Virus record (IMG/VR): IMGVR_UViG_3300030376_007133
Source of the DNA: an uncultured virus (IMG/VR IMGVR_UViG_3300030376_007133)
Lineage: Duplodnaviria > Heunggongvirae > Uroviricota > Caudoviricetes
Reading direction: 5' to 3' (one strand)
DNA length: 64,000 bases
In this document: positions 12,828 to 37,728 of the stretch, in pieces
How positions within the stretch are numbered: the stretch's first letter is position 1
Layout of the letters: each line of letters starts with the position of its first letter
The notes under the pieces: model-generated
What the model saw: the letters and a program-made list of their open reading frames with translations, nothing else
The model's database searches: none
Told to the model about the DNA's origin: nothing
Program-made: the position numbers and the translations under genes

Positions 12828-12845
12828 TAAAAATAGGAGATTAAA

Positions 12846-13943: not shown

Positions 13944-13944
13944 A

Positions 13945-17483: not shown

Positions 17484-18195
17484 TAACTTTTCCTAGTTTA
17501 TACTGCAAATCAAAATTACTAAGTTTTTCTTTATTGGGATATAAATGGTGTTGTGTATGAAGTTCATCACCCCACATAATAGGCCATAGCCATTTATTAT
17601 CTGAGCTTGTATCTTCGCCTCTTCTATTTGTTAAATCGCCGAAGTCTAAATGTACAGCGATAACACTAAATTGTTTCCACCACCAACACATACCAATAAT
17701 ACCACCAAAAATAGGCATCATACAAGTCATAATCTTATAATGATTATTTGTCATTTGCTTCATGTAAGGAGTTAATCTAAAAGTTCGTATAAGTCTTTTC
17801 TTATTGATCGGTGAATATTCAACATGCCATTCGCTAAAGAATATTTTCCAAAAACCTACCTTACGCCATTCATGAGGATCATGATCTGTGCCACTAGTTG
17901 CATGATGCTGTTGGTGTATCGCAACGTACCCAGGTAGTTTACCCATATTTGTCATAATAGCAATAAGGTGTAATATATAAGTTGCTCTATTAGAAAAATT
18001 AAATTGTCCATGAGATAAATGTCTATGCATAAAAACTGAATGGCCAATATGATATATTAAAAGACTAATTGGAATAATCCACAAAAGATATTGCCAACCA
18101 AAATATAAAGTATGGGTTATTAAAACCGCAGTTCCTACTGCGGCTGCAATTTGTGTATTTCTAAGTTCTTTTTCAAATCCTATCATTGTGTACAA
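17470..18195 (-). CDS. Membrane fatty-acid desaturase, paralog
   Basis: His boxes HRHLSH, HQQHH (+DPH), HTQHH. Confidence 0.85.
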   Translation of the reverse strand: MYTMIGFEKELRNTQIAAAVGTAVLITHTLYFGWQYLLWIIPISLLIYHIGHSVFMHRHLSHGQFNFSNRATYILHLIAIMTNMGKLPGYVAIHQQHHATSGTDHDPHEWRKVGFWKIFFSEWHVEYSPINKKRLIRTFRLTPYMKQMTNNHYKIMTCMMPIFGGIIGMCWWWKQFSVIAVHLDFGDLTNRRGEDTSSDNKWLWPIMWGDELHTQHHLYPNKEKLSNFDLQYKLGKVIEYV

Positions 18196-18656
18196 CCTAC
18201 AACGTGTATTCTCTCGTGAGTTAGAGATGCATTCATGGCTGTGTGAGGCAATGTTGTATCAAGCAAATATGGATGTGAATCTGCAGGAACATGGTATAGT
18301 TGTTTATCAATAACTAAAAAACAATGCGGATGAGTAGTTACAGCTAAATGAATTCGTTTTGAAAAATCTTTATGGTACGAATAGCAATTACCTGGTTTTA
18401 CTTTTAATATTCGTGTTCTGTATAAATTATTTTCTGTTATAAATTTCGAAATTTCCCAATGCGGTTCTGTATTTAATTTTTTAAAATCTGTTTCTTTAAA
18501 ATTTTCACCATATGTTGTTCCTACACCATCATGCCACTCACCGTTAGGTGATTGTAATGATATTTGAGAATCGTTCCACCAACCATGGACTTTAACTATA
18601 AAATCAATCTCGATTTGAATTTGATTTAAATCGTATGTTTTATCTATTTTTTGCAT
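18183..18656 (-). CDS. 2OG-Fe(II) oxygenase (Asp/Asn beta-hydroxylase-like)
   Basis: YSYHKD...RIH...LDTTLPHTAMN...RIHVV. Confidence 0.75.
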   Translation of the reverse strand: MQKIDKTYDLNQIQIEIDFIVKVHGWWNDSQISLQSPNGEWHDGVGTTYGENFKETDFKKLNTEPHWEISKFITENNLYRTRILKVKPGNCYSYHKDFSKRIHLAVTTHPHCFLVIDKQLYHVPADSHPYLLDTTLPHTAMNASLTHERIHVVGCTQ

Positions 18657-18670
18657 ACAAATATCTATAT

Positions 18671-18698
18671 AAAAATGGGGAGCTGACCGTAGCTCCCC
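18671..18698 (-). terminator. Intrinsic terminator
   Basis: GGGGAGCT-ACGGTC-AGCTCCCC-ATTTTT. Confidence 0.75.
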
Positions 18699-18726
18699 GC
18701 GCATCTATTACGTGATGACCCGATTC

Positions 18727-20418: not shown

Positions 20419-20631
20419 TTAATTTAACTTTTTTATGCCTAAAGCCCAATTTTCTGCGGCATCTTCAACATACCTTAACGATTTACCTGGAAATTCTTCG
20501 CTATCAAAACGTGTACCATTTTCTTCATGGTATGTTATATAAGCATGTTCCTCTTTAAAGTTAAAGTGAACCTCACAATATTGCCCCTCGTTAGGAGCAT
20601 CGGCATAGTATGTATGAAGATGTTTATTCAT
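20419..20631 (-). CDS. Hypothetical protein
   Basis: Coupled ORF; YVEDAAENW motif. Confidence 0.6.
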   Translation of the reverse strand: MNKHLHTYYADAPNEGQYCEVHFNFKEEHAYITYHEENGTRFDSEEFPGKSLRYVEDAAENWALGIKKLN

Positions 20632-21308
20632 TGTACGTAGTCCTTTATTGTTGGAAAGATTTGTGTTATAGCTGTAGCAATTGCCTTTGCCAATTCCATG
20701 TGTTCTTTTTGTGTACCATTGTCCGATCGTAACTCAACGTAATGTATCCAACTTCGAATAGTTCCGTTGACGTATAACTTTGAGACAGTGTTGCCTTCAG
20801 GGAGAACAGCCCTTGCTTGTTCCTTTGCGATACCATTATCTATAGCCCATTCATATGCTTCTTTTGCCGCTTCAATAACAGATAATTGTTTAGCAGCCCA
20901 TATCATACTTAATCGTTCATCTTCAGTTTCAATACTATTCTGACGATTCTTAGTATCTTGTAACCGAGCTTCCCTTAAAACAAAATCATCAAGATCCCTG
21001 ATATCAGCATACCGCTGAGAAAACTCTTGAAATGAAAACGATCGGTGTCTAAGGAATTGTCTTGCGATATCTCTTGTTGTTTCGACTTCGATGCAGGCTG
21101 ATGCCATTTCGAACGGTGACCAGTGCTTGTGCTTGATGAGATATCCAAGTAACTTTGTCGTTGTTTTGGTGTTAGCTTGGTTTGACGGATTGGAGACACG
21201 GGCGCAATACGCGACGAGGTCTTGGATGTTTTCAAGTCCCATGATTCCTGGTTCGCCAGAGTGTACATGCCGTACAGGTTGTGAGTATGAGATGAGACGT
21301 GCACGCAT
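20628..21308 (-). CDS. thyX: Flavin-dependent thymidylate synthase
   Basis: RHRSFSFQEFSQRY; HWSPFE; EQARAVLP. Confidence 0.95.
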   Translation of the reverse strand: MRARLISYSQPVRHVHSGEPGIMGLENIQDLVAYCARVSNPSNQANTKTTTKLLGYLIKHKHWSPFEMASACIEVETTRDIARQFLRHRSFSFQEFSQRYADIRDLDDFVLREARLQDTKNRQNSIETEDERLSMIWAAKQLSVIEAAKEAYEWAIDNGIAKEQARAVLPEGNTVSKLYVNGTIRSWIHYVELRSDNGTQKEHMELAKAIATAITQIFPTIKDYVQ

Positions 21309-23812: not shown

Positions 23813-24128
23813 GATCTTTTGCTTTCACTTTTTCTGCTTCTTGGAATAATGTAAATAATACATCACCGGCAGCCTTTTGTAAACCACTATTTTTTTCTGT
23901 TAAGTCAGGATCCGGTGTTGATTTAATAGCAAAGTCAAATGCTAGTTGAAACTCATCTTCATCTGCTGGATCATCAATCATACGTAGATTTTTAAATCCA
24001 ATCAATGTCTCAACAAATGCACCTGTTAGAAGGCGAACGTTAAATTCCATTTCGCCTTCACCAGGATTTGCTTCTTCTTCGATTGCAAAGTCAATGTCTT
24101 CTTTTAAGAAGTCACTTGTAATAGTCAT
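23805..24128 (-). CDS. Acidic hypothetical protein at the gp40 position
   Basis: Synteny between uvsX and gp41. Confidence 0.55.
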   Translation of the reverse strand: MTITSDFLKEDIDFAIEEEANPGEGEMEFNVRLLTGAFVETLIGFKNLRMIDDPADEDEFQLAFDFAIKSTPDPDLTEKNSGLQKAAGDVLFTLFQEAEKVKAKDLE

Positions 24129-25174
24129 ACTGTTTCCTCTACAATTTCATCCATAGATACTTGTTCTTTGTAACCAATTGAATATTGCTTCTTGACAAAC
24201 TCTTTAAAATCTGTTTTATTAAAGATGTCAATCCAGAAAAACTGTCCGAGTGTATCTCCATACCTTACTTTATTACCTAACTCACCGGTCTCCTGGTCGA
24301 CCACAGCATACCACCCATTCGATGGTTTCTCAACATATCCACCTGCTAAGGCAACATCAAGTAATCCACTATAATCTTCGACGCCACCTTCCCATGAGAC
24401 GGTGATTGGTATCTTAGACTTTTCTTTTACATAGCGTGATTTCTCTACGTTAATTACAAAGTGATAACCTTGAATCTCTGTACCTTTTTTGTCTTGTTGA
24501 CGACCAATGATCCAGATATTATCAGCTGAATAGTAAAGACCTGTACCACCACCAACAACGGCTTTAGGGAACAGACCGATTTCCATATATGTATGGTTAA
24601 CAGCAACCATAGGAATATTCTTCATAGTTAAGTATGGAGTTGCCATACGAAATAAACCTTTGAGTGCTTTTGCCCTTGACATATCTGCCACTGACTTTTC
24701 ATTCATAGCATCATCAAGTTCTTTCTTCGATGCTAAGTTACCGATTGAATCAATAACAATAATAACATGATCATCACGATCGATGTTCTCAAGTTGATTG
24801 ACTAGATCGAATTTTAGTTCTTCTACATTTGTAATCGGTGTGTGAAGAACACGGCTAGGATCAATATCAAATTGACTAAAATAATTTTGAGGTGAGCCAA
24901 ACTCAGAATCATAAAATAACATAACGGCATCTTTGTGATGCTTCATGTAAGCACCAGCCATAAGTAAAGCAAATGAAGTTTTGAAATGCTTTGATGGACC
25001 GGCAAGAACGGTAAGACCGGCAGATAGACCACCATCAATATCACCTGACAAGGCAACATTAATCATTGGTACATCTGTCTTTACCATATCCTTTTCATTA
25101 AAAAATTTAGACTCAGAAAGAACCTCCGTAGCTTTTAGCTTGGAGTTCTTTTTGAGTTTATCCATGATAGACAT
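24125..25174 (-). CDS. uvsX: RecA-like recombinase
   Basis: AGPSKHFKT, FYDSEFG, IDSIGNL, EKSRYVKE. Confidence 0.95.
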   Translation of the reverse strand: MSIMDKLKKNSKLKATEVLSESKFFNEKDMVKTDVPMINVALSGDIDGGLSAGLTVLAGPSKHFKTSFALLMAGAYMKHHKDAVMLFYDSEFGSPQNYFSQFDIDPSRVLHTPITNVEELKFDLVNQLENIDRDDHVIIVIDSIGNLASKKELDDAMNEKSVADMSRAKALKGLFRMATPYLTMKNIPMVAVNHTYMEIGLFPKAVVGGGTGLYYSADNIWIIGRQQDKKGTEIQGYHFVINVEKSRYVKEKSKIPITVSWEGGVEDYSGLLDVALAGGYVEKPSNGWYAVVDQETGELGNKVRYGDTLGQFFWIDIFNKTDFKEFVKKQYSIGYKEQVSMDEIVEETV

Positions 25175-25202
25175 GCATAATCTCCTTTAGATTGATAAGA
25201 AT

Positions 25203-25231
25203 ATTATATCACGATTTACGGGTATTGTAAA
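25203..25231 (-). promoter_or_regulatory. Promoter TTTACA-N17-TATAAT for uvsX
   Basis: Exact spacing. Confidence 0.65.
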
Positions 25232-26024
25232 CAATATTATTTGACTTTTCTCTGTCATCTACTTCATATTGTTTTCTTACTTCGTTATTAGCATCGATGA
25301 CTTCTTCAAGGATACTAAAATCACCAGCATAATGTAAAAAAGCTGACGTATCTTTTGGGAAACAAGCTCCACCAAATCCGTGTTTACCATCGTAACCTGG
25401 TACAGTTGTATGTGATGCTCCGATACGGGGATCATCAATCATTGCATTAACTACACGAGAATATCTTGCTTTAGATTTATGTATAATTTCTGCGAATTGG
25501 TTGAACCACATTACTTTACTTGCAAGATAACAATTGATACCGTACTTGATAAAACTTGCTTCTTCGAATGTGGTATAGTGAGTGGGACATTGACGACATG
25601 CACTATAGTCATCATAATATTTTTTTAGTTGTTTGCAATCCTCTTCATAACCACCAAATACATGAATAGTAGGATTTAAAAATTCTTCTATTGCATTACG
25701 TTCGGCAAGAAACTCAGGATTATAAACTACTCGTTCAAATTGTAAAGGCATAACATCAGGAGTAATAGTAGATTTAACTACAATTAATGCATTTGTATTT
25801 TTACGTAACCATTCAGTCGCTTCTAATACTAAGTCAGCATTGATTGTACCATCATCATTCATTGGTGTAGGTAAACATACACAAGCTAGATCTATAAACT
25901 TATTTAAATCTTTTAACTTAGTTCCATATAATGGATCTACTATATATTTTTCTATACGAGGATCGTTAAATCCTGCATCCACAGCTTTACCTACAAAGCC
26001 ATGGCCTATGATTGCCATCTTCAT
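25209..26024 (-). CDS. UDP-glucose/GDP-mannose dehydrogenase family
   Basis: IIGHGFVG, CLPTP, KST, YNPEFL, GFGGACFPKD. Confidence 0.9.
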   Translation of the reverse strand: MKMAIIGHGFVGKAVDAGFNDPRIEKYIVDPLYGTKLKDLNKFIDLACVCLPTPMNDDGTINADLVLEATEWLRKNTNALIVVKSTITPDVMPLQFERVVYNPEFLAERNAIEEFLNPTIHVFGGYEEDCKQLKKYYDDYSACRQCPTHYTTFEEASFIKYGINCYLASKVMWFNQFAEIIHKSKARYSRVVNAMIDDPRIGASHTTVPGYDGKHGFGGACFPKDTSAFLHYAGDFSILEEVIDANNEVRKQYEVDDREKSNNIVYNTRKS

Positions 26025-26980
26025 TAATTTACCTTATGATAAGTTTTATACCATTCTACAAAATTTGCAACGCCTTCTTGCACTGATACCTTTGGTTTAT
26101 ACCCTAATGCTTGTAGCTTAGTTGTATCTGACCAAGTGTCTTGAAGATCAGCAGGATGCATTGGGCTATAGCGAATGTTGGCTTCTCTATCTAGATTCTT
26201 TTCGATCTCTCTGACAAAGTCCATAAGCTGTACACGTTCGCCATAACCGATATTATATATTTCATTTTTACCGTGTTCCATAGACTCAAGCGCAATTATT
26301 ACTCCATCTACAATATCATCTATGTAAGTAAAATCACGTGACATGTTGCCATCATTATATACTTCTATCTCTGTACCATGTATAATATTATCTACGAATT
26401 TATATAGTGCCATATCTGGTCTACCCCATGGACCATAAGCTGTAAAGAATCTTAGACCAGTAGTAGATGGTATACGTGCGTAATTAAACATAGATTCATT
26501 TGCAATCTTAGTCATGGCATATGGATGTTTAGCTTGACCGGGTGGATCCTCTTTAAATGGAATCGGTCCTGTATTCACACTTGATGTTGATGCATATACA
26601 ACTTTATGTATTGCTAACATTTCACATGCCTCAATCAAATTATGAGTACCTTTAATATTATTCATCATATATAATTGTGGTTGTTCTAATGAAAACCTGA
26701 CGCCAGGATAACCAGCTAAATGAATGACAGCATCTGGATTTTCGGTATACATAAAGTCTACCATTTTATCACGATCTAATAAATCAATATTATGTATTGC
26801 TGCTCTTTCACGTTTATTAATATGAGCTGAATTAATTTGAGTAACTCTATCCCATTTTAAATTAGGATTATAGTATTCATTATAATTATCGATACCGCAT
26901 ACTTCATAACCTCTATTGATAAGATTCACACACGTATGCATACCTATGAAGCCAGCAGCTCCTGTCACCATTACTTTCAT
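26024..26980 (-). CDS. NAD-dependent nucleotide-sugar epimerase (UDP-glucuronate 4-epimerase-like)
   Basis: TGAAGFIG, YAMTK, LRFFTAYGPWGRPDMA, RDFTYIDDIV. Confidence 0.9.
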   Translation of the reverse strand: MKVMVTGAAGFIGMHTCVNLINRGYEVCGIDNYNEYYNPNLKWDRVTQINSAHINKRERAAIHNIDLLDRDKMVDFMYTENPDAVIHLAGYPGVRFSLEQPQLYMMNNIKGTHNLIEACEMLAIHKVVYASTSSVNTGPIPFKEDPPGQAKHPYAMTKIANESMFNYARIPSTTGLRFFTAYGPWGRPDMALYKFVDNIIHGTEIEVYNDGNMSRDFTYIDDIVDGVIIALESMEHGKNEIYNIGYGERVQLMDFVREIEKNLDREANIRYSPMHPADLQDTWSDTTKLQALGYKPKVSVQEGVANFVEWYKTYHKVN

Positions 26981-27086
26981 TTCTTCATCCTCTTCATGGC
27001 TTTACGTATTCCATACCAAAACCATATCTTCCAAAATATAGTAGCCCAAGGATCTGTATACATGATATAATATTTAATCTTTTTTA

Positions 27087-28094
27087 TCATACCATAAAAT
27101 CCTCTAATGCTCTTACAGGAGGAGTGCCTTGTCTTTGTTCCCAACCTGATTCCCAACCAGAATTATTTGCCAATGTAGATGGTATGTGATCAAACGTGCC
27201 ATTACCTCTTGGCACATAGTTTTGTCCGAACCTTACAAAGTCACACATTACGTCTTCAAGATCTTTTGGTTTACCGCCTGTTTTTTCACGTAGTAAATCC
27301 ATAAAGGCATCTGCTTTCCAACCTGATGATAGTTTCTTCATACAACGCACGGCATTGTTACCTAAGTATGTGTGGCTATCTACATCAGTGAGCTCGGGAA
27401 AATAATCAGAGCAGTCCATAGAGAAAGCCGCATACTGAAAATTAAACTTTCTGTGACCATTTCTTCTATTGTGTTCATTAAGATGATCGACAATATCTTT
27501 ATGGCCTCGCTTCTTCTTATATAAAAACTCTCCAGTACTATGTATCAAGTCTGGTAATTCCTTGACCATAAAGTCTACGTTACTCACGCCTTTCTTAGGT
27601 GCGGGCGGTTGATTACCAATAGAAGTAAACATTGACTTACCTGATTCTTTTGTTTGAACCAGATCTTCTGCCATATCTTGTATATCTCTATGTCTGCCCC
27701 AATGTTGAACTATGTTGTTACGATAACCATGATCGTTCTCAAAGCTTGCACCAGAACCTGTAATCCTATGACACATAAAAGTATATAGCCAAGTTTCTAT
27801 TGGCCAATTAATCTCATCATTCTTTGCACTTATGTCACGTCTATCTTTCTTTTGCCAACGCCATTTAGGTGTCTTCGATCCAAATCTCAGATCTTGTAAT
27901 ACATTTGAAAAGCCTGCAGCGTTTCTTGTTTTACAATCGTAGATATCGATCTTCTGCATAAGAGGATCGTCAATAATTTTATTTGCTTCTGGTCCTTCGT
28001 AATCTAGTTGTCCCCAGTTTACGTTGTCTTGTAACCAGCCAGCTCGTGGATAATAATAATCAACTAATACGTCGATTGCTTCTTCATTCAACAT
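27087..28094 (-). CDS. Putative aGPT-Pplase / amino-acid:DNA transferase-like helical DNA-modification enzyme
   Basis: FMCHRITGS; D-YFP..D; C-terminal DLEDVMCDFVRF resembling the family ExxxC[DE]xx[KR] motif; context. Confidence 0.55.
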   Translation of the reverse strand: MLNEEAIDVLVDYYYPRAGWLQDNVNWGQLDYEGPEANKIIDDPLMQKIDIYDCKTRNAAGFSNVLQDLRFGSKTPKWRWQKKDRRDISAKNDEINWPIETWLYTFMCHRITGSGASFENDHGYRNNIVQHWGRHRDIQDMAEDLVQTKESGKSMFTSIGNQPPAPKKGVSNVDFMVKELPDLIHSTGEFLYKKKRGHKDIVDHLNEHNRRNGHRKFNFQYAAFSMDCSDYFPELTDVDSHTYLGNNAVRCMKKLSSGWKADAFMDLLREKTGGKPKDLEDVMCDFVRFGQNYVPRGNGTFDHIPSTLANNSGWESGWEQRQGTPPVRALEDFMV

Positions 28095-28968
28095 TCTTAG
28101 GCCATTCTCTATATGAATCAATCGTATCAGGCAAATCAAGGTTTTGTAAGATAGGTTCTTTACCTACGTTCCAGAATAGAATATCTTTCTTACCATCCTT
28201 CGGTATATATTTCCAGACTTTGCCATCGTAAGTATCTATAGTCGGGAATGGTGGCAAGTTTTCTTTCTTCTCAGAAGTAGTAAATGGTAATGGTTCTGAT
28301 ATAGGATCAGCTTTACCAAGTTCACCAGCTTTCATATTACGTGATACACAAACAGATATAAACTCAGCATTAGGCCAAGCTATTTGTAATCCCCGTGTGA
28401 GCACGCCCGTGGATGTGGCTGTGTACACCACTTCTGGTTCACGAATCTGCGATGCAGTCTTTACAATACCTGCCGTAACCATTTCATGTTTTAAACCAAG
28501 AGGTACAAAGAAAGTATTTTTATATTGGTCTGCCCAGTCTTTTGCAATCTTATTTAGATTAGGCATAGCAGCGATTCTATGAAATTCTGCCTTTGCGCCA
28601 CGTTCTATACAACAAGCCTGATGATCAGAAATACGTTTAGAAGATGGCATAAAAAGTTTTACGCTAAGATCATGCCTATTAGCAACATCAAGCAAACTAA
28701 CACCAGCGAGACCAGTGCGAGGTTGAACATAAACAATAGTATCGACCCTACTAGGGAGAAAAGAGATAAGACAATCTCCACCCCTACACTTACTACCAAC
28801 AAGATAATCATCACGAACAACACGAACATTATCAATTCTATCAACAACTGGTATACCGTAAGGATCCTTCCAATCCTTTGCTAAATCCAAATAATATTCT
28901 TTTGGATCTCCATATAATGGATGTATGTCTTTATTGACTCTGTCAACTACATGATTATTATGCGCCAA
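28084..28968 (-). CDS. Fold-type II PLP-dependent enzyme
   Basis: VVRDDYLVGSKCR (PLP Lys), ATSTGVL, YDGKVW, ILFWNVG. Confidence 0.75.
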   Translation of the reverse strand: MAHNNHVVDRVNKDIHPLYGDPKEYYLDLAKDWKDPYGIPVVDRIDNVRVVRDDYLVGSKCRGGDCLISFLPSRVDTIVYVQPRTGLAGVSLLDVANRHDLSVKLFMPSSKRISDHQACCIERGAKAEFHRIAAMPNLNKIAKDWADQYKNTFFVPLGLKHEMVTAGIVKTASQIREPEVVYTATSTGVLTRGLQIAWPNAEFISVCVSRNMKAGELGKADPISEPLPFTTSEKKENLPPFPTIDTYDGKVWKYIPKDGKKDILFWNVGKEPILQNLDLPDTIDSYREWPKNVE

Positions 28969-29908
28969 AGGGAGATACTCCCCAATCATTTCTACGATAA
29001 TAAGGTGGAGCTACATGAAAACTAGAACCATGTTCCATATGCGTGTTTGCATATTTCTCAGGATCCATAGTATACCATTCCTTTGGTGGCATTACAACTT
29101 TACCTTTTGCTTCATCATGTAGGATTTCAATAAACTGATTTGTAAGATCCCAACGTTCTTGCCAAGATCCATAGAAAGGTTCTTTCTTAAAATATCCTGA
29201 CTTAGGTATACGTCTACCTTCAAACTCTACTGGAACAGGAGCACAAAACCATACGTCATCACCAAGTTCATTGCCTTGACGTACATACTCTTTGATAGTA
29301 TACTTTAGACTAAAGTTATGATGACGAAGAATATGATGCCTAATATCAATAGATCCAAGACAAAGAGTAATCTTATCGTACTCGCCTTCAAGTTCAAAGC
29401 CTTTCTTAAGAGTTCCATATAATGTTTTACCATCGGTTCTAAATACCTTATCACCTTTACCACTAAATGCTATTGTATGTGAGTCACCATATATAACAGA
29501 ATTAGTTTTAAGATCTGCTTGTTTTAGTGATTTAATATTACTTATACGTTGTGATACTTTTTGACACCAATCGTAATCAATACCATTATATGTTGTAGCA
29601 TTACGAATACGCTTGGCAAGCATTGATCCATAGTCTGGCATATGCCAGTCAAGCGATACAACGTTTTTACAAGCCATAACAATATTGATCTTGTCAAAAA
29701 CTTCTTTAGTGGCACCACCGAATAAATTAAGTGTACCACCAAAGTTTGCACCATGATCTATATAAACTGTATCAGCACGTAAGATATCAGGTGTACATTT
29801 ATTATTAATAGATGCACCTAATTGTTCACTCCAAAGTTCAGCCCAACCTCTTGTATGAGATTTAGGATTCTTCGGTATATTCGATATCGGATTGGTTATA
29901 ACCATCAT
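28958..29908 (-). CDS. Fusion of beta-glucosyltransferase-N-like region and SGNH-like domain
   Basis: LNLFGG (cf. T4 BGT INFFGG); IYGDSH, LGSIDIRHH, distal SFH. Confidence 0.45.
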   Translation of the reverse strand: MMVITNPISNIPKNPKSHTRGWAELWSEQLGASINNKCTPDILRADTVYIDHGANFGGTLNLFGGATKEVFDKINIVMACKNVVSLDWHMPDYGSMLAKRIRNATTYNGIDYDWCQKVSQRISNIKSLKQADLKTNSVIYGDSHTIAFSGKGDKVFRTDGKTLYGTLKKGFELEGEYDKITLCLGSIDIRHHILRHHNFSLKYTIKEYVRQGNELGDDVWFCAPVPVEFEGRRIPKSGYFKKEPFYGSWQERWDLTNQFIEILHDEAKGKVVMPPKEWYTMDPEKYANTHMEHGSSFHVAPPYYRRNDWGVSPFGA

Positions 29909-30347
29909 ACTTCACAAAGTCCCATTTTACTCCAGCCTCTTTAAATATTCGTCTACTTTGAATCCATGAATCAAGCCACCGGTCTGTAATCTTTTGATGA
30001 GGCATCACAACTCGGCTAACGCCGACTTGAACAACGCCGAGGGAGCAAGATTTACAGACCGGTAACCCATACACGTACAAGGTGGAGTTATCGAGGGAGA
30101 CACCATTGTACGATGCATTGTAAATTACATTCATTTCTGCGTGAACGATGTAATTATATTTTTGTTCTCGATCATCTAGACGCTCATTGCTATCTACTAT
30201 GTTTCGAGGAAATCCATTATAGCCGCAAGATAATACTTGTCCTTTATCACCTATGGCAACCGCACCAATTTTACTTGATGGATCTTTAGACCAGCTGGAA
30301 AGTTGTTTGGCTAACTCTAGATATCGTATGTCCCATTTATTTGACAA
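29862..30347 (-). CDS. cd: dCMP deaminase
   Basis: WSKDPS, GYNGFPR, HAEMN, PVCKSC. Confidence 0.92.
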   Translation of the reverse strand: MSNKWDIRYLELAKQLSSWSKDPSSKIGAVAIGDKGQVLSCGYNGFPRNIVDSNERLDDREQKYNYIVHAEMNVIYNASYNGVSLDNSTLYVYGLPVCKSCSLGVVQVGVSRVVMPHQKITDRWLDSWIQSRRIFKEAGVKWDFVKYDGYNQSDIEYTEES

Positions 30348-31023
30348 GTTTAAAATGCCTTTCATATACGTGAAGATTCTGAACCTGCCAATGAATAAAA
30401 CCAGATTCTATTTCTTCGCCTCTGCTAAAACTAATGTCTGATGCTAATTTTCTTAACACAAACTCTTGCCAAGCATAATCATTCTTATAACCAAATACTA
30501 CATCATTTGAACGCATTTGTACAACACAATCTAATCTGTTATCTCTTATATAATAAGTAACAGCATTTGTGCAGATAAAATCATTCTTATCGTTTTCGTT
30601 ATATTCTTTCCATATGCTCGGACGATTATATATCATTGTACCACGTCTACTATCTGGATTATTCAATAGTTCGTCTAATACTTGATCATACTGTTGGTAA
30701 AACTTTGGACTATAAATGAGATGACCGTAATTAGAATTAATCTCGCCATGCTCATTAGCAGCATATTGCCATGCTTGAGGTGGCTTTTGCTGACCAATTC
30801 CATAGATATCATTTATGTTAGTTGATTGATTTTCATACCATGTGATTTCTGCATCTACATAGTATTGATTGACTTCGCCAAAAATAACCGGTTCGTCAGC
30901 AATGAAATTAGCTCCAATAAGTTCAATTGTCTTTTGACCGGTTTTATCCATAGTAAATGCTTCATCGTTTAATTCACCAATAAAAAATTTACGTATGTCA
31001 GTTACGCTTGGAAGGTACATCAC
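30337..31023 (-). CDS. gp42: dCMP hydroxymethylase (thymidylate synthase fold)
   Basis: INSNYG, DFICTN, MRSNDVVFGYKNDYAWQ with cytosine-specifying Asp, LHVYERHF. Confidence 0.85.
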   Translation of the reverse strand: MMYLPSVTDIRKFFIGELNDEAFTMDKTGQKTIELIGANFIADEPVIFGEVNQYYVDAEITWYENQSTNINDIYGIGQQKPPQAWQYAANEHGEINSNYGHLIYSPKFYQQYDQVLDELLNNPDSRRGTMIYNRPSIWKEYNENDKNDFICTNAVTYYIRDNRLDCVVQMRSNDVVFGYKNDYAWQEFVLRKLASDISFSRGEEIESGFIHWQVQNLHVYERHFKLVK

Positions 31024-31420
31024 AAACTCTCTTTCTCAAATCGCTACTACTAAAGCGATGGTCCCTCTTATTAAAATATATCTGAATGCCACGATTACGA
31101 CATTCATCCTTACCAGTAAAATCCTTTAGCCGATACTCTTCACCAAGGATTCTGACGTCAATAGGATACATGTTTATTATATCAAGTAAATCACGTTCTG
31201 TACAATAAACAACTACCTCATCAACATATTTAACGGCATGCAATTGTGCTTGCCTTTCTACAATAGTTTGGACCGGAGGATTTTTATCACTCCGGTCCAA
31301 GGACGGATCGACTTGCAAGGCTGCAATCAAGTAGTCACACTGAGATTTAGCTTCTCGAAGCATGCTTACATGACCAGCATGAAGGAGGTCGAAGGTGCTA
31401 GCCGTCAGTCCTATTCGCAT
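30998..31420 (-). CDS. TagD-like cytidylyltransferase
   Basis: TASTFDLLHAGH, KYVDEV, RFSSSDLR. Confidence 0.85.
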   Translation of the reverse strand: MRIGLTASTFDLLHAGHVSMLREAKSQCDYLIAALQVDPSLDRSDKNPPVQTIVERQAQLHAVKYVDEVVVYCTERDLLDIINMYPIDVRILGEEYRLKDFTGKDECRNRGIQIYFNKRDHRFSSSDLRKRVCDVPSKRN

Positions 31421-31748
31421 TCTTATCTCTATTCAAAAAGTCACGAGTTGGATCTTGTCCGTCAATACCACCGCGTGCATACGCAACGGCAAAAGACGAA
31501 TAGTTAATTAGATCTTTAAGTGAGTCCTCAATGGACTCAAAGTTTGGTTCATAATCAGGATCATTCTCCATTGCTTCGAGAACTGACCATAATCGAATAG
31601 TTTTTGTATTGATTAATTCCATAATGGACATTACACCACGTGGATAATAATCAGCTTGTTTGATACGTGAATTAGGGTTTTGGTAATCACGTGATTTTCT
31701 ATCTTGAATCTCTGCACACTCTTGCAGGACTTTGATTGATTCTTTCAT
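31398..31748 (-). CDS. Nucleotide-modification-associated domain 1 (DUF1599-like)
   Basis: KSRDY...ESIEDSLKDLINY. Confidence 0.7.
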   Translation of the reverse strand: MKESIKVLQECAEIQDRKSRDYQNPNSRIKQADYYPRGVMSIMELINTKTIRLWSVLEAMENDPDYEPNFESIEDSLKDLINYSSFAVAYARGGIDGQDPTRDFLNRDKNANRTDG

Positions 31749-31769
31749 ATTGACCTCTTTTCTAAATAC

Positions 31770-31798
31770 ATTCTATCACATTTAAAAGCGTTTGTACA
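31770..31798 (-). promoter_or_regulatory. Promoter TGTACA-N17-TAGAAT heading the modification operon
   Basis: Exact spacing; GAGG RBS before ATG 31748. Confidence 0.7.
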
Positions 31799-31801
31799 CA
31801 G

Positions 31802-32350
31802 TTATTTTCGAAAAAATTGATAATTCTGATCCATTCTTGTTCCGCGTATTTCTTCAAGAGCTTTATCAAGATCGTAGTCTTGTGGATTGTCGTCAAAAGG
31901 AAATGGAAATCTCATATTTTTTCTTCCTTTTGAATCGAATGTTCCATCATGCTTTAATCTTTTTACGGCTTCTTTGGCATCAACGTAGTCAAGTATTTTA
32001 TATTGTACCATATCGTTTAATCGCAAAATTTTATGTGGTTTCTTTAGCCACGTCCATACTCCGAATTTTTGTATTTTACCTTCTAATACTAATCCTTTAA
32101 TATAATCTGATACTTTTACGCCATATTTAGAATCTAGTTTATAGTCAATATTACCCATAAACTTATGAATTGTATCCCATTCATATGGGTGTTCATGTAA
32201 TGTTTGATATGGATCTACCTTTGATTGATGCCATTCTGGAAACTCACAGTCCCATTGAAAATATGGATCTACAGTTGTACGTTTATCTTCAGCAACACGT
32301 TCATCACGTCTTTCAATAAACTCTTTTGCAACTTTACCTTTAAAAATCAT
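31802..32350 (-). CDS. Hypothetical protein
   Basis: Overlapping ORF; possible D..DYK nuclease-like motif. Confidence 0.55.
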   Translation of the reverse strand: MIFKGKVAKEFIERRDERVAEDKRTTVDPYFQWDCEFPEWHQSKVDPYQTLHEHPYEWDTIHKFMGNIDYKLDSKYGVKVSDYIKGLVLEGKIQKFGVWTWLKKPHKILRLNDMVQYKILDYVDAKEAVKRLKHDGTFDSKGRKNMRFPFPFDDNPQDYDLDKALEEIRGTRMDQNYQFFRK

Positions 32351-32693
32351 TGCCCATAAACCCCACTGATTCTCTTACAATATCTTTGTGAGCAAATTCT
32401 GCCCAATACAATTCAAATGCAACTCCGTCTTCAATGCATTCAAACTTATGATATAGACCTGGTTTTACTTTTGTGTAATCACCTGGATATAATATAGTCT
32501 CGTCACATAAGTCATAATCTTTTTGCCATACTTTAATACGCATAGTACCTGACTCACAATAGAAACCATTCCATTTATATTCATGTAAGTGTTTAGAACA
32601 AACACCACCTTTTTTCATTTCAATTCTATGAAACTCTAAAACTCCATTAGCTTCAACGAGTTCAGTAGTTCCCCATACTTTACCAGCTATCAT
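32340..32693 (-). CDS. Cupin (sugar isomerase-like)
   Basis: GKVWG, CSKHLHEYK, PGLYHKF. Confidence 0.75.
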   Translation of the reverse strand: MIAGKVWGTTELVEANGVLEFHRIEMKKGGVCSKHLHEYKWNGFYCESGTMRIKVWQKDYDLCDETILYPGDYTKVKPGLYHKFECIEDGVAFELYWAEFAHKDIVRESVGFMGNDF

Positions 32694-32845
32694 GTATCAT
32701 CTGCCTTAAATTCTTTAATACGTATATAAGCTTCGTTTAATTGCTTTTGTAAATCACGTACATTTCGTTTCAATATTTCTATTTCATCAGCTTGAGCTAC
32801 AATCATTTTTCGATTCTTCTCAGCTTCCATTTCATCAGGTAACAT
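32690..32845 (-). CDS. 51-aa coiled-coil protein (not in ORF track)
   Basis: MLPDEMEAEKNRK...LQKQLNEAYIRIKEF; fills gap with coupled ends. Confidence 0.55.
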   Translation of the reverse strand: MLPDEMEAEKNRKMIVAQADEIEILKRNVRDLQKQLNEAYIRIKEFKADDT

Positions 32846-33174
32846 TACTCAGTCCTTGTAAAATATGGTTTACGACAAATAGTTCTACCTGAAGATAGTT
32901 GACGAGAACAACGCCAGTCTGCGGTATCTTCCCATTTCCAATCAGGTCCTCTGAACCATGGCTTTCTTTTTAGAAACTCTCTCATCTCAGCAACTTCTAT
33001 TTCTTGTTCTTGCGTACGATATTTTTGTACACAAGCTGCTGCCTTACTATAGTTATATGTTTCAAAACTATTGTTATTATAATCTTTCATACAGTCTTTA
33101 ATAAAAGTATTATCAGCCATCACCATAGAAGATGTACACATAATAATAATTGCAAACATTACATATTTCATCAT
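32845..33174 (-). CDS. Secreted Cys-containing hypothetical protein
   Basis: Signal peptide; 4 Cys in mature part. Confidence 0.55.
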   Translation of the reverse strand: MMKYVMFAIIIMCTSSMVMADNTFIKDCMKDYNNNSFETYNYSKAAACVQKYRTQEQEIEVAEMREFLKRKPWFRGPDWKWEDTADWRCSRQLSSGRTICRKPYFTRTE

Positions 33175-34106
33175 ATCTTTCCATTTCTCATAATATATTC
33201 CAATGCTCTATCAGCCTCAGTTTCCATTGGTCTGCTTTCGTACCAATTACCATTCTCTTGATCAAACTGTTTACATAAATTTGCTATCTCGAATGCTTGA
33301 ATCGGATAACCACGATAAGTGGCATTACCTGCAATCTTCACCATAATGGCATACATCTTAGCATACCAACCAGTGCCACTAATAGTTTGATATTCTGCAG
33401 CTAAGTCTTTTGGCCAGAATGGACAATCTCTATAACCAGACCAAGAATAAGTTGTATTAGTTAACTTATTTTGTTTATATTCTAGTACAGCAGCTTGTAA
33501 TTCTGGCGGTAATCTATCTAAAAAGTTTTTAGAGTCTCTGCTACGGTCGTAAGGCCATTTGGCCATAAGATGATCAACGTCAATAGGATTCCCGATATTA
33601 TCGAAAATAAAGTTGTTAGCACCAGCATATTTCGCTGGTATGTAATACATCCTTGATAGATCTTTAGTCTGTGCATCTCCAATATCTTCGAGTTGTTTGT
33701 TGAGTGACCACCAGAAGTGCTTAATCTCAGATTGTTCAACCTGTCGTTCAAGCTCAAAGACAAGTCTGAACTTCGGCTGATCGAGTGTAGAGCTGGCAGT
33801 ACTATAGCAAATAAAATTATAATTACCAAAACGCTTAACCAAATCATCTTTTAAATCTCCTTCGAATTCATAATCGTCAACATCAACAGCAGCCCAACCT
33901 GCCCAAGCCAAAACATTTCTGTTCGCCCGAGTTGTGCCATCCACGTAAGTAGCCGGTGATATAAGCTCAGCATCTTTTTTACCTTTTCTTTCTTGTTTAC
34001 TTAAATCAAATAGCAAATGTTTAAAGTCATCCCACGAATGGAATGACATTTTCCTATGAGTTTTATTGTCAAACGTACTCTTAAAGAGCGTTAGGGAAGT
34101 CTCCAT
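33171..34106 (-). CDS. AEP-superfamily primase-like protein
   Basis: ISPATY, RANRNV, AVDVDD, YSTASS, KFRLVF, KDLSRMYY. Confidence 0.7.
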   Translation of the reverse strand: METSLTLFKSTFDNKTHRKMSFHSWDDFKHLLFDLSKQERKGKKDAELISPATYVDGTTRANRNVLAWAGWAAVDVDDYEFEGDLKDDLVKRFGNYNFICYSTASSTLDQPKFRLVFELERQVEQSEIKHFWWSLNKQLEDIGDAQTKDLSRMYYIPAKYAGANNFIFDNIGNPIDVDHLMAKWPYDRSRDSKNFLDRLPPELQAAVLEYKQNKLTNTTYSWSGYRDCPFWPKDLAAEYQTISGTGWYAKMYAIMVKIAGNATYRGYPIQAFEIANLCKQFDQENGNWYESRPMETEADRALEYIMRNGKI

Positions 34107-34494
34107 GGTTATCCTCATGCGATGGTGCCTGCCAGTCTTCAGGCTTCAATAGATCAGGTAATCCAAAAGGATTTGGCCTACCTGGTTTTATTCCTGGTTC
34201 TTTTGAAATATTTGCTTTATAAATTTCGTCCCATGCTTTATTGGCATCCACACCAAAAACGTCAAGAGTGCCAATAGCGAAAACACAAAGATCAATAAGA
34301 CCATCAACGATTTCTTCAGGATCTCCTTTTTTAAAAGCATCACACGTTTCATCCAATTCCTCGCGTACCATTCCTAATCTAAAGAGAAGATAGTTTTGCA
34401 TCTTAACTTTGTCATCTTTATTTTTTTCAAACCAGTCATTCACGCCAAACTTAGCATGCATATCACTGATGTCTTTTACCCAATTTTCACTCAT
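34081..34494 (-). CDS. MazG/PRA-PH-like NTP pyrophosphohydrolase
   Basis: REELDE...EEIVDGLID...ANISK...KPEDW. Confidence 0.8.
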   Translation of the reverse strand: MSENWVKDISDMHAKFGVNDWFEKNKDDKVKMQNYLLFRLGMVREELDETCDAFKKGDPEEIVDGLIDLCVFAIGTLDVFGVDANKAWDEIYKANISKEPGIKPGRPNPFGLPDLLKPEDWQAPSHEDNHGDFPNAL

Positions 34495-34499
34495 AATAT

Positions 34500-34528
34500 A
34501 TTATACTCCATTTTCAATCTTTTGTAAA
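34500..34528 (-). promoter_or_regulatory. Promoter TTTACA-N17-TATAAT (leaderless geometry)
   Basis: -10 ends 5 nt before ATG 34494. Confidence 0.6.
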
Positions 34529-35235
34529 CACTTATATGTGTCTTCCCATGAATTAACTTCTACTACTTCACCACCCTTATCACGTAACTTACGAGCAATC
34601 TCAAAATCGTTTCCACCTTCTTCAGTCTTATCACCAAAGTATACTACTTTAGTAGCATCAAAGTTTTTTACGATTTGTTCTTTACCATTACCGTGAGGAG
34701 TGATGTCTATGCCGGTTTCACCAGCTACTGTTGCTATTACTAGATCAGCACTTATATCCCACCATTCTTGCTTATACCATCTTTCATTGAATCTTTCTGC
34801 AATGCCTTCTCTTTCTTTATTAGCTTCATCCCATTGCATATAATTTTCTCTACCGTCTGGACCACCTTTGCGACCTAGCACACTAAAGTTTAGTAAACCT
34901 GTACGCTGATCAAAATGATCACCTGTCTTACTCATAAAATTTGAATTACTCAACTCAGCTAGTAACCACCAACGATGTTTATCTGGTAATGTCCAGTCAT
35001 TTTTATGCAATTCTCTATCACCTTGGAATACGTGATTACCTGAACATTGATAAACTTTAACACACAGATTATAGATCTCTTCAGGTATTTGTTCTAATGT
35101 CTTTTCTCTATCAGAACCTGTGATTAAATAACATTCGTGCTTCATTACAAACTTAACAAAAAACTCAGCAAACTTCTGATCCATCTTACCACGACTTGGT
35201 GTAAGTGTACCATCAACGTCAAAAATATAAATCAT
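34501..35235 (-). CDS. HAD-IIB phosphomannomutase-like protein
   Basis: [32 protein letters not shown]. Confidence 0.85.
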
Positions 35236-37728
35236 CCGAAAAAATCCTCCAATGTGTTTTTCTGTTCGACCGACCAGCCGACAGCGTCAAGAATCGGTAA
35301 GAGAGGTTCAATAAATGTTTTGTCAAACTGTTTGTTATAATCCACATAATTATGTAAGCCAAGACTCTCAGGTAAATAACCTGGAAACGCAATCACATTT
35401 TCTTTGATCGGATTAGGCATACGCATNNNNNNNNNNACAAAACTTTATCTTCTCTCCGTTTTGAATTAGTGGGTACATTTTGCCAAGAGATTTCTCCTTA
35501 ATCGAATGATTATACATGATAGACCCACGTACGTGGATAGGTGTGCCCTTGGCATACAATGTACTTTTACGAGACCATTTAGTCAAATCCTTTACGCCTC
35601 GTGGAAACGAAACTTCTTCGGGAGGCAATGACGTAAATGCTTTACGAAAATCTGCAATAAACCTTTGAGTTTTATTCTCATCGCCTTCGATAATAATCTT
35701 AAACATCTCTTTGAATTTAGTACGTACAACTTCTGGAGTTGAAGACTTAATTGCCTCAATGCCCATGATCTTAAGTTTTGGTTCGGCATATTGTACACCT
35801 TCTGAGTTGTGCACATTTAGAATATATCTTTTCTTTGCCGTCCATATACCACGATTTGCAATAACCTCACGCGCCATAACCATACGGTTTGTATGAGCCT
35901 GTTGCTTATCAAATAGTTCAGCATAAGATTTCTCTAAGACTTTTTCGAAATGCTCAGAACAAATCTTGTCAAGTGCTACTACTGGATCTTTAGGATTTAG
36001 TTGCTTGACTAACGGACCCATGTTAATGTACAACGAATCTGTATCCATGGCAATTACATAATCACGAGCTTCTGTTTTAAGGATACGATTCATCTCTTTG
36101 TTCATAGCTTTCTCAGCCCACATGATAGACAGCTGACCGGATAAAGTAATACCTTCGGCCATACGCATATCAAAGTAACGGAAGTGTTTATTACCGAGTG
36201 CGCCATAAAGTGAGTTCAAGAGAATCTTAATAGCCATTTGCTGATTCTCAAGTTGATTGATTTCTTTCTCGAGATGGAACGTTTTCTCTTTCTGATACTC
36301 ACGTTCTTTGGAAAGCATTTGCTTTTTGACTTCGGAACGTTCGGCATAATAATCTATAATAATCTGAGGTAAGATGCCTTGATAAGATTTATCATAAGTA
36401 GAACCATTGGCAGCGATTGCAATATTCTGTTCTCGGAAGTTACGTGGAACCGGATCAGACTCAAGATAACCTAGTACACCATTAGGTGCTCGAGCTTCAG
36501 TAATAGTTTCAGGTGACATATTGTATTGTACAATAAGATTAGGATATAGAGAATTAAGATCGAACGATACAACCCAATCGTGTGAACCAACATATGGGTC
36601 TTTTACATAGCCGCCTGGATATGGGATTTTATCCTTTACTTCATTAGGCGGAACAATAATATTCTTTTTGTTAAGTTCACGATATATGATAGAATCCCAT
36701 ATAGCCGTCGTACCCATCGTATCAGCTAAAGTTACTCCACCTTTATATGCCACTGTAAGTGCAAGGTTGATAAGACCCATCTTGTCATCGATACGTTGAA
36801 CAAGTTGAACATCTTTGATATTATAGTCGATAAATTTTTGATGATCGTTTTTATAGAGCGTATGAAGACTACCATGTTCCTCATAGGATAACTTCTTCTC
36901 ACCGAGTACCGTATAACCGATGTGATCAAGTTTATATGATTCTTGAGCACCATAGGAATAACCGAACTTCTTGAACAATTCAAGATAGTCACCTTGTTCG
37001 ATGCCAAATATTTTATACGTACCAGACTTAGTTATGTCGGTGTCAACTATATTCCATGGCGATAATCGTTTAGCGGCTTGCTCAGAACCAATTCGAGTTA
37101 ATCTTTTAATTAAGTACGGTATATCAAAATATCGACAATTCCAGCCAGTAACTACATCAGGATAATTGTCAGACCAGTACTTAAGGAAACTGGCAAGCAT
37201 AGCTTCTTCCGAATCAAACTTTTTATATTGAATTAGATCGCCATGCATTTCTATTTCACATTTTTCTACGTCATAATCACCTAGACCCCACACATGATAT
37301 ATGGAAGACTTACTGGATTTAAGAGCAATAGAAATGATTGGATGTAATGCTTCTTCTGGTTCAGGGAATCCATCGTCAGAGGCAACCTCAATATCGAAGT
37401 TAACTACATTGATATGAGCTGGATTAAACTTAATATTGTCTGGCCACTTATCAGCAATGAATTGTGTTGGCCACCGGTCCATACCATAGATTTTAAACTC
37501 AGGAATTTCTTGGTAACGTTTCATAAATTGTTTAGCTTCGCTCATACTATCAAATTTAATAGGAGCTACCGGAGTACCATCAAGAGCGAGGAATGGCGAT
37601 TCATCGTTAGACTTGATATACAACTTCGGTTGAAATTTTACTTTAGATTGAATTGGTGCGCCTGAATCATTATATCCACGATATAGGATTTGATTCATGT
37701 GACGATTTACTGATGTATAGAATGACAA
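35232..37728 (-). CDS. gp43: Family B DNA polymerase (one gene across N gap 35427-35436)
   Basis: FDIEV exonuclease, [27 protein letters not shown]-terminal LEDFFG clamp-binding peptide. Confidence 0.95.

Follow-up and report, generated by a model that had tools for sequence, protein, structure and literature searches.

A predicted cytosine hypermodification cassette between the polymerase and uvsX genes of an uncultured marine T4-like phage

Closest described systems and the locus

Phages of the M6, ViI and PaMx11 type hypermodify thymidine with a dUMP hydroxymethylase, a 5-hydroxymethyldeoxyuridine (5-hmdU) DNA kinase, an amino acid:DNA transferase (AADT; Pfam ADDT, PF18724) and a pyridoxal phosphate (PLP) decarboxylase, while T4 decorates 5-hydroxymethylcytosine (hmC) with alpha- and beta-glucosyltransferases. 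As passages of PMC13326640 describe, the natural hypermodifications of cytosine known so far are glycosides, built on hmC or on 5-hydroxycytosine. Here we analyse a stretch of 64,000 nucleotides (IMG/VR record IMGVR_UViG_3300030376_007133; hereafter the window) from a T4-like myovirus, and within it the region 25209-35235 between the DNA polymerase gene (gp43) and uvsX, for which an original prediction had proposed a new cytosine hypermodification pathway. The region carries T4-type hmC synthesis together with three enzymes related to those of thymine hypermodification: a helical protein (U350), a PLP enzyme and an SGNH-fold protein (U316), which lie in the slot held in T4 by b-gt, the beta-glucosyltransferase gene. 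The phage DNA therefore probably holds an undescribed decorated cytosine. In the reading that we prefer, to which we give a probability of roughly 0.55 and whose chemistry we infer, the cassette would make a post-replicative amino-acid-type decoration of hmC in which the SGNH protein stands in for the kinase.

The window derives from an uncultured marine T4-like phage, and nearly every gene in it lies on the minus strand. It encodes gp23, portal, sheath, terminase, gp45, the clamp loader, RegA, UvsW, UvsY, gp46/47, gp41, UvsX and a B-family polymerase, which shares 54% identity with its counterpart in Phage C48C1 (Kyanoviridae) and 46–48% with those of cyanomyoviruses. A megablast search with 25209-35235 gave no match among 50,697 phage records. 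To place the locus among its relatives, we used an IMG/VR pattern scan that returned 153 stretches with U350 relatives, 80 of which were kept for locus analysis. A set of 27 of these 80 loci has at least 4.5 kb on both sides; these are the full-flank loci, and all fractions of 27 refer to them. The features on which the argument depends are the following:

35413-37728, minus strand: DNA polymerase, one boundary of the region
30337-31023, minus strand: T4 gp42-type dCMP hydroxymethylase (27/27 full-flank loci)
28958-29908, minus strand: U316, two-domain protein with an SGNH fold (AlphaFold2 model, pLDDT 85.3; 27/27)
28084-28989, minus strand: fold-type-II PLP enzyme, M6 gp52/ViI gp226 family (phrog_7093, 4.5e-29; 27/27)
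27087-28094, minus strand: U350, all-helical protein with a DNA-glycosylase-like fold (AADT match in BFVD; solved match 8z2m_A)
24125-25174, minus strand: UvsX, the other boundary of the region

All genes between the polymerase and UvsX, the flanks that the original prediction had named, are on the minus strand. Seven of them form a chain from U116, a small MazG-like gene, to U350, with successive overlaps of 11–47 nt, and a gap of 106 nt separates U350 from the epimerase gene that comes next. Scanning 24000-36000 for sigma-70 promoters yielded 56 sites where 49.5 were expected, and gave no operon boundary. In T4, the corresponding interval reads 41, 40, uvsX, segA, b-gt, 42, imm, 43, and in the window the space between uvsX and 42 is taken by U350, the PLP enzyme and U316. 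The locus thus resembles that of T4 in its orthologous dCMP hydroxymethylase, in the neighbourhood 41-uvsX-[modifier]-42-43 and in having a dCMP deaminase and a nucleotide pyrophosphatase alongside. Unlike in T4, no gene of the beta-glucosyltransferase (BGT) family or of another glycosyltransferase family was found in the window, and the modifier slot is filled by U350, the PLP enzyme and U316.

The likeness to the thymidine pathways lies in the kinds of enzyme involved. In both, the hydroxymethyl-pyrimidine comes from a hydroxymethylase of the thymidylate synthase (TS) fold, a helical protein with a glycosylase fold, from one and the same superfamily, bears a Glu...Cys motif, a PLP enzyme of phrog_7093 has an aligned lysine, and partner enzymes occur as fusions (kinase/PLP/AADT fusions are noted there in passages of PMC8989533). 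In contrast to those pathways, the base is predicted to be cytosine, by way of a gp42-type enzyme with an Asp; no P-loop 5-hmdU DNA kinase (PF18748) was found, a two-domain SGNH-fold protein being present instead; there is one helical protein and not a paralogous pair; U350 falls below the Pfam ADDT and HMUDK_hel cut-offs; and the carriers are marine T4-like myoviruses. The departures from known pyrimidine hypermodification by AADT and PLP enzymes are thus the cytosine substrate, the missing kinase and the SGNH partner. We know of no characterised AADT pathway that does without a DNA kinase.

Two further systems share parts of this arrangement. The arabinosyl-5-hydroxycytosine clusters of RB69 and DLP3 likewise hold an Asp-type TS homologue and nucleotide-sugar genes in the uvsX-gp43 interval (passages of PMC13326640); unlike the window, RB69 has GT-B arabinosyltransferases and a thymidylate-kinase-like gene. 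In the methyltransferase/TET clusters of PMC8256090, as in the reading proposed here, 5hmC in DNA is a platform for further groups, and a passage of that paper records, in some of the clusters, P-loop kinases resembling those of the thymidine pathways. There, hmC is formed from 5mC once the DNA has been replicated, and glycosides are the known products. In the window, by contrast, gp42 would make hmC at the nucleotide level, and neither a methyltransferase/TET pair nor a kinase or glycosyltransferase stands beside it.

The hydroxymethylase and its three partners

The precursor enzyme matches T4 dCMP hydroxymethylase (PDB 1b49) at E 1e-70, against 1e-6 or weaker for ThyA entries. It keeps the cytosine-specifying Asp that had been read from its NDYAW motif, at the position of Asn177 in E. 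coli ThyA; the D179N mutant entries 6l18 and 6a9a show NNYAW there. The catalytic Cys is kept as well, with FICTN aligning with FMCTN. Since the RB69 enzyme also has the Asp, we compared the window protein with both T4 gp42 and RB69 gp48. Passages of PMC13326640 describe gp48 as a flavin-dependent TS homologue that yields 5-hydroxy-dCMP, and the Asp and Cys marker positions as common to the hydroxymethylase and 5-hydroxy-dCMP synthase types. Identity is 52% over 223 residues to T4 gp42 versus 30% over 125 residues to RB69 gp48, and on these figures an RB69-type 5-hydroxy-dCMP synthase was set aside as the less likely reading. Judged by sequence, the window's ThyA-fold protein is a gp42 orthologue, which makes hydroxymethylation its likely product. 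The flavin-dependent thymidylate synthase ThyX, encoded elsewhere in the window, supplies dTMP, so the ThyA-fold gene would be free to act as a cytosine hydroxymethylase.

The second component, which had been called a fold-II PLP enzyme, is indeed one by its match to phrog_7093. Its invariant Lys67 aligns with Lys36 of M6 gp52, the residue that passages of PMC8989533 predict to form the aldimine. A BLASTP match to gp52 (3e-5) has a C-terminal motif in common, and in the family alignment the C-terminal motif PFP..YD.K.W..FWN.G is invariant. M6 gp52 and ViI gp226 are demonstrated decarboxylases of amino-acid:base conjugates in DNA, according to passages of the same paper. The window protein therefore appears to be a relative of the hypermodification decarboxylases with a putative Schiff-base lysine, and decarboxylation itself is a prediction. 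Among further relatives, two at 28% identity are annotated 'DNA modification methylase', one in Erythrobacter phage vB_EliS_R6L gp1 (L083; labels in L denote comparison records) and one in Microcystis phage Mae-JY30 (L084:5890-6600). One of the two lies within the long gp1 near a PAPS reductase gene, and the other stands alone after two ParB/sulfiredoxin genes.

The third component, U350, had been described as an aGPT-Pplase-like protein, an assignment that holds by fold and not by Pfam. Its AlphaFold2 model is all-helical (pLDDT 86.7). The three best rows for this model in BFVD have E values from 1e-13 to 5e-12, TM scores of 0.74–0.80 and identities of 29–31%, and the top named match is an 'Amino acid:DNA transferase domain' protein (E 1.2e-12, TM 0.80, 29% identity). 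Further rows include clade 1 of the aGPT-Pplase proteins (aGPT-Pplase1) and the helical domains of 5-hmdU DNA kinases (E 0.06 or worse). Among 48,161 solved chains, the best match is 8z2m_A, the PaMx11 gp46/PUGT AADT (Z 9.2, rmsd 3.7, 202 residues), whose membership of the ADDT family was confirmed by sequence; the next 12 rows are AGOG, other HhH glycosylases and DUF2419. The helical glycosylase-like fold expected of 27087-28094 is thus present in the model.

At the residue level, E280, D281, C284, D285 and R288 of U350 are at least 90% conserved in 40 family members. The U350 motif E280-D281-x-x-C284 falls on E243-T244-x-x-C247 of ADDT, which was the sole local hhalign match and a weak one. 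In PaMx11 gp46, Cys247 is the proposed nucleophile that attacks C6, and Glu243/Thr244 hold a metal on O4 (passages of PMC11472151). From its model, U350 is best placed in the superfamily of AADTs and 5-hmdU-kinase helical domains, and we regard it as a candidate group transferase acting on 5hmC in DNA through Cys284 and Glu280. We speculate that Asp281, in place of Thr244, might read the N4 amino group of cytosine. The family is large, with 286 relatives at E 0.001 or better, and of the 120 relatives listed none had a Pfam domain or a name. Pfam gave no family for 19 distant or fused relatives, with one weak MGDG_synth row, and a tblastn search with U350 gave no match in 50,697 phage records.

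The fourth component, U316, has 520 relatives and had been described as a fusion of a BGT-like half with an SGNH half at 28958-29908. The SGNH half stands by fold: residues about 131–311 match many GDSL esterases and acyltransferases at Z 10.7–8 (about 10), with a Foldseek probability of 0.98–1.0, the O-acyltransferases OatA and PatB among them. SGNH enzymes carry a GDS nucleophile in block I and a DxxH histidine in block V. Invariant in U316 are G141 D142 S143 H144 (GDSH, with Ser143), D188, R190 H191 H192 and H298. The BGT-like half was not confirmed. Residues 1–130 form an alpha/beta domain, and between residues 41–131 and BGT residues 55–144, NLFGG/NFFGG included, there is a weak hhalign profile match (E 0.0056, probability 6.5%, 82 columns). 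In single-sequence runs of U316 against BGT the NLFGG/NFFGG motif was the only match; Pfam gave no match in 22 U316 members, and an ESM Atlas search with residues 1–132 gave no usable match.

The four genes travel together. In each of the 27 full-flank loci, the genes for the PLP enzyme, U316 and gp42 are all found no more than 4.5 kb from U350, and two gene orders occur. In the whole set of 80 loci, which includes many truncated ones, we counted PLP in 73, U316 in 63, gp42 in 57, dCMP deaminase in 43, MazG in 40, the UDP-sugar-dehydrogenase-like gene (UGDH) in 26, epimerase in 16, cytidylyltransferase in 16, cupin in 14 and PMM in 4. With gp42 at 52% identity to T4, PaMx11 gp46 as the closest solved relative of U350, the Lys67/Lys36 alignment and this complete linkage, the part of the original interpretation that coupled hmC synthesis to relatives of AADT and PLP enzymes is upheld.

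The kinase and the glycosyltransferase that had been noted as missing are also missing by profile search. Pfam scans of 89 window open reading frames (ORFs) found no P-loop DNA kinase and no glycosyltransferase family. The profiles PF18748 (5-hmdU DNA kinase), PF09198 (BGT), PF00534 and PF00535 (GT1/GT2) matched in none of five related viral records, which are 86, 77, 53, 39 and 38% complete, and the positive controls for these searches matched in M6 (kinase, 1.1e-19), T4 and L089. Among the titles and abstracts listed in literature searches on hypermodification, SGNH proteins, aGPT-Pplase and DNA transferases, none describes the cassette; supplements, with possible metavirome contig tables, were outside the scope of that search.

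Proposed route and the SGNH–helical pair in other phages

By homology, the cassette begins with synthesis of the hmC nucleotide. The gp42-type enzyme would form 5-hydroxymethyl-dCMP, dCMP deaminase and ThyX would maintain dTMP, and dCTP would be removed, probably by one of two MazG-like proteins, such that hmC could be incorporated at replication as in T4. U350, U316 and the PLP enzyme would then act on hmC in the polymer after replication. In this scheme U350 would flip the base out and Cys284, with Glu280 nearby, would attack C6, which would let the 5-methylene carbon swap its oxygen substituent for a nucleophile, an amino acid being the likeliest. The task of U316 would be to ready the hydroxymethyl group, in the simplest case through O-acylation into a leaving group, without ATP-dependent phosphorylation. 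The PLP enzyme would trim the attached amino acid, for example by decarboxylation to an amine. The end result would be a cytosine, positively charged or bulky, that may block restriction and CRISPR nucleases. By the same chemistry at C6, C5-methyltransferases can replace the hydroxyl of hmC with thiols, and on that basis activation of hmC may not be obligatory.

Several results weigh against this amino-acid-type decoration. Pfam ADDT did not match U350 at E up to 1 (control M6 gp51, 1.4e-46). Fifty U350-family representatives yielded one ADDT match, at E 0.00099 (19.3 bits against a cut-off of 26.2), and one HMUDK_hel match, at 0.01, also under the cut-off. The profile–profile match of U350 to ADDT is weak (probability 2%, E 0.024), the structural Z of 9.2 is moderate for a helical protein, and a Foldseek search of the U350 model against the PDB gave no row at E 0.001 or better, with AGOG glycosylases on top at E about 1. 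The E-x-x-x-C motif also occurs in the HMUDK_hel proteins M6 gp55, the helical proteins of L089 and L157, and ORF233c of Aeromonas phage 44RR2.8t (below); it therefore marks the superfamily and is not proof of the transferase clade or activity. The PLP protein scores 17.8 bits against Pfam PALP, under the cut-off of 35, and is only 23% identical to M6 gp52, so a different PLP reaction is possible. U316 is without the usual Asp of DxxH, reading S-S-F-H with a Ser three residues before His298; the role of this SGNH protein is a guess from its position and its fusions, with no acyl donor evident. The related loci are kin, with U350 70–95% identical among them, so that 27 of 27 does not amount to 27 independent events. 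Finally, the cassette is known here from its genes, with no isolate carrying U350 among 50,697 phage records.

Other sequence comparisons were silent. PDB sequence searches with U350 and U316, as single sequences and as profiles, returned chance-level rows only; no Pfam SGNH model matched U316; and hhalign gave nothing significant for a shallow U350 alignment against single sequences of M6 gp51, M6 gp55 and 44RR2.8t ORF233c, or for a deeper one against the L089 helical protein.

In a further explanation, which draws on the lack of direct evidence for a modified base, the three proteins would act on free nucleotides or a metabolite, or serve anti-defence or repair, for instance on damaged or host bases, and the virion DNA would contain plain hmC. 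Glycosylase-fold proteins often excise bases, and the substrate ranges of SGNH and PLP enzymes are very wide. This explanation has to set aside the strict co-occurrence with gp42 and the position of the cassette in the b-gt slot. Type IV restriction enzymes attack plain hmC, so a genome with undecorated hmC would be exposed. All characterised relatives of U350 and the PLP enzyme, moreover, act on a hydroxymethyl-pyrimidine in DNA (passages of PMC8989533 and PMC11472151). We consider this explanation very improbable.

To ask how the SGNH and helical proteins relate elsewhere, we turned to the wider U350 family, which comprises 141 representatives at 50% clustering. Seven of eight long representatives examined consist of a U316-like N-terminal half and a U350-like C-terminal half, and one of these fusions was verified as a single ORF of 786 residues (L088:2379-4739) in a 225-kb viral contig. 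In cultured phages, U316 relatives were found only in Aeromonas (38 records), Tenacibaculum (3) and Stenotrophomonas (2) phages. ORF233c of Aeromonas phage 44RR2.8t (795 residues, L002:5992-8379) has a U316-like N-terminus and a C-terminus with a weak HMUDK_hel match that includes E-x-x-x-C, and the same phage encodes a gp42 homologue. 44RR2.8t is thus a cultured hmC-type phage in which the SGNH–helical pair could be tested. ORF233c adjoins a sodium:solute symporter-like gene.

A scan seeded with the fusion proteins returned 298 further stretches, of which 80 were kept; most come from another lineage, whose polymerase is about 30% identical. Among the 32 full-flank loci of this second lineage, 31 carry a U316-like gene and, after it, a myo-inositol-1-phosphate-synthase-like gene, a 135-residue gene and the gene for an HMUDK_hel protein, which passes the cut-off of that family at 3.6e-12. 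Of the 32 loci, 23 have an FkbM methyltransferase and 3 a BGT-like gene, and a TS homologue nearby has Asp at the specificity position. Examples are L089:9926-15427 and L157:8392-14171 (both IMG/VR). Together with the fusions, these loci make the SGNH protein and its helical partner look like a recurring pair whose third enzyme is interchangeable.

This pairing bears on a different division of labour, in which U316 is the catalyst and U350 its DNA-binding, base-flipping partner, like the helical domain of the kinase. The SGNH protein would then transfer an acyl, aminoacyl or other group onto the hmC hydroxyl to give an ester, production or editing of the donor, or of the attached group, would fall to the PLP enzyme, and there would be no AADT-type substitution at the methylene carbon. 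The U316–U350 fusions mirror the architecture of kinase and helical domain, 44RR2.8t ORF233c joins a U316-like domain to a weak HMUDK_hel match, and the U316-like gene of the second lineage travels with an HMUDK_hel protein and no PLP gene; the shared E-x-x-x-C motif and the fold matches to OatA and PatB fit as well. Against this, the nearest named fold relatives of U350 are AADT-domain proteins (E 1e-12), with kinase helical domains far behind, its best solved match is itself an AADT, and the family of the PLP enzyme acts on amino acids already on DNA. In M6, furthermore, gp51 is needed for transfer and the helical gp55 is not, as passages of PMC8989533 report. On balance we think it rather unlikely that U316 is the catalyst in this sense.

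The amino-acid-type decoration in the window could also be one instance of something broader. As a tentative suggestion, which we hold to be possible and not probable, the SGNH and helical proteins may form a general ATP-independent two-component platform that derivatises hydroxymethyl-pyrimidines in DNA, its two components fused in some phages and separate in others, with an interchangeable third enzyme. If that were true, the platform would yield an amino-acid-derived cytosine when combined with a PLP enzyme (in the window and at least 153 related stretches), a cyclitol- or sugar-phosphate-type decoration with the myo-inositol-1-phosphate-synthase-like protein and FkbM, and a third product through the fused 795-residue protein of the 44RR2.8t group of Aeromonas phages. 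There would then be several undescribed DNA bases and a new route for activating the 5-hydroxymethyl group.

Other genes of the interval and implications

The genes around the cassette had been listed in the original prediction, and most of them are borne out by Pfam, PHROGs and NCBIfam, including the cytidylyltransferase, the dCMP deaminase, the epimerase and dehydrogenase, the cupin, PMM, the MazG-like enzyme and, outside the region, ThyX. The Nmad1 gene of that list was not confirmed: no Nmad family matched in the region in Pfam, PHROGs or NCBIfam. The remaining features are:

34501-35235, minus strand: PMM (Pfam)
34081-34494, minus strand: MazG-like nucleotide pyrophosphohydrolase (Pfam PRA-PH 5.8e-11; phrog_671 1e-23; 24/27 full-flank loci)
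33171-34118, minus strand: primase-like protein of 315 residues (phrog_9765 7e-42; Atlas look-alikes with PriCT_1 and BT4734-like_N)
32340-32693, minus strand: cupin (Pfam)
31398-31748, minus strand: U116, small MazG-like protein, first gene of the overlapping chain (phrog_18404 'hydrolase' 1.2e-11)
30998-31420, minus strand: cytidylyl/adenylyl-transferase, RfaE domain II or TagD-like (Pfam CTP_transf_like 2.1e-13; 10/27)
29862-30365, minus strand: dCMP deaminase (Pfam dCMP_cyt_deam_1 6.8e-15; phrog_174 6.8e-38; 25/27)
26024-26980, minus strand: nucleotide-sugar epimerase (Pfam 1e-52; 7/27)
25209-26024, minus strand: UGDH-like protein, short, 271 residues (Pfam; 12/27)
20628-21308, minus strand: ThyX, flavin-dependent thymidylate synthase (Pfam Thy1 1.4e-43)

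The nucleotide-sugar genes invite another explanation of the locus, in which they feed glycosylation of hmC, for example with a uronic acid, and the N-terminal domain of U316 is a BGT-like acceptor half. RB69 carries UDP-arabinose genes in the same uvsX-gp43 interval, and passages of PMC13326640 place its sugar-nucleotide genes, transferases and TS homologue there together. In the window, the cytidylyltransferase sits inside the overlapping chain, embedded between U116 and gp42 with overlaps of 23 and 26 nt, and a homologue 44–45% identical to it lies with an epimerase upstream of a U316-like gene in L141:5290-5670 and L142:3199-3579. The weak profile match of U316 to BGT given above points the same way.

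The distribution of these genes argues otherwise. In the full-flank loci UGDH occurs in 12 of 27, epimerase in 7, cytidylyltransferase in 10, cupin in 8 and PMM in 2, a range of 2–12 against 27 of 27 for the cassette. The polymerase–UvsX interval of Phage C48C1 contains homologues of the primase-like protein (53% identical), the epimerase (49%) and the dehydrogenase (41%), while its complete genome contains no homologue of gp42 (the same query matched in 44RR2.8t), of U350 or of U316. No BGT, GT1 or GT2 gene was found in the window or in the five related records, the C-terminal half of U316 is an SGNH domain and not a nucleotide-sugar-binding Rossmann domain, and glycosylation would leave the PLP enzyme unexplained. 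Because they are patchy in the 27 loci, present in a phage that lacks gp42 and unaccompanied by a glycosyltransferase in the five related records, we take the sugar genes to be accessory cargo in an interval that varies. The uronate-substituted hmC offered as an option in the original prediction, and with it the place of the sugar genes in the pathway, thus loses ground, and we judge glycosylation of this kind unlikely.

Accordingly, the epimerase and dehydrogenase pair is probably not part of the cassette, and the sugar genes are not needed to explain it. The UGDH-like protein has matches to the NAD-binding and central domains only, with no match to the C-terminal domain, and scores far below the cut-offs of NCBIfam; its substrate may differ, or it may require a partner. 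The cytidylyltransferase, which in NCBIfam matches rfaE_dom_II (1.9e-20) and g3p_cytidyltrns (2.3e-17), both below their cut-offs, is best seen as accessory, and a role in modification in some phages is conceivable.

Other genes of the interval may serve the nucleotide pool. The MazG-like protein at 34081-34494 may shape the dNTP pool. U116 matches the second MazG-like half of phrog_18404 and is present in 19 of 27 full-flank loci, often abutting gp42; Pfam and PDB sequence searches gave no match for it, and we regard it as a candidate dCTP pyrophosphatase, which would serve to exclude C. The dCMP deaminase would provide ThyX with dUMP, the part that cd plays in T4. In NCBIfam no name was obtained for U350, the PLP protein, U316, U116 or the proteins labelled U182, U109 and prim315.

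Two candidates were considered and set aside. The 315-residue protein at 33171-34118 was rejected as a modification enzyme, being primase-related; its gene is kept in 22 of 27 full-flank loci and has a homologue in C48C1, and therefore belongs to the backbone and not to the cassette. Its PDB sequence search gave chance rows only. A split or intein-bearing polymerase was likewise rejected. The window has two runs of 10 N, at 35427-35436 and 49300-49309, which are apparently masking; the polymerase ORF appears split because the first of these cuts it, and the ORF at 35232-35426 (64 residues, phrog_262 4.7e-20) is the polymerase C-terminus.

At a distance from the interval, 12000-18700 of the window is a low-GC island (GC 0.28–0.31 against about 0.36–0.38 in its surroundings). 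It carries genes for a TauD-family dioxygenase (13119-13970), an N6-type methyltransferase-like protein (13945-14649), two fatty-acid-desaturase-like proteins (16782-17483 and 17470-18195) and an Asp/Asn beta-hydroxylase-like protein (18183-18704).

The cassette is common in the ocean, with 286 relatives of U350, 520 of U316 and 153 viral stretches that carry a U350 relative, and the linkage of SGNH and helical proteins as a pair across phage lineages is new here. It raises the mechanistic question of how the hydroxymethyl group could depart without a DNA kinase, and the enzymes could be developed into reagents that label 5hmC site-selectively. If cytosine does receive an amino-acid-type decoration, the result would be a new DNA base, with consequences for the restriction enzymes, CRISPR nucleases, sequencing chemistries and virome library preparations that meet the DNA of marine T4-like phages.

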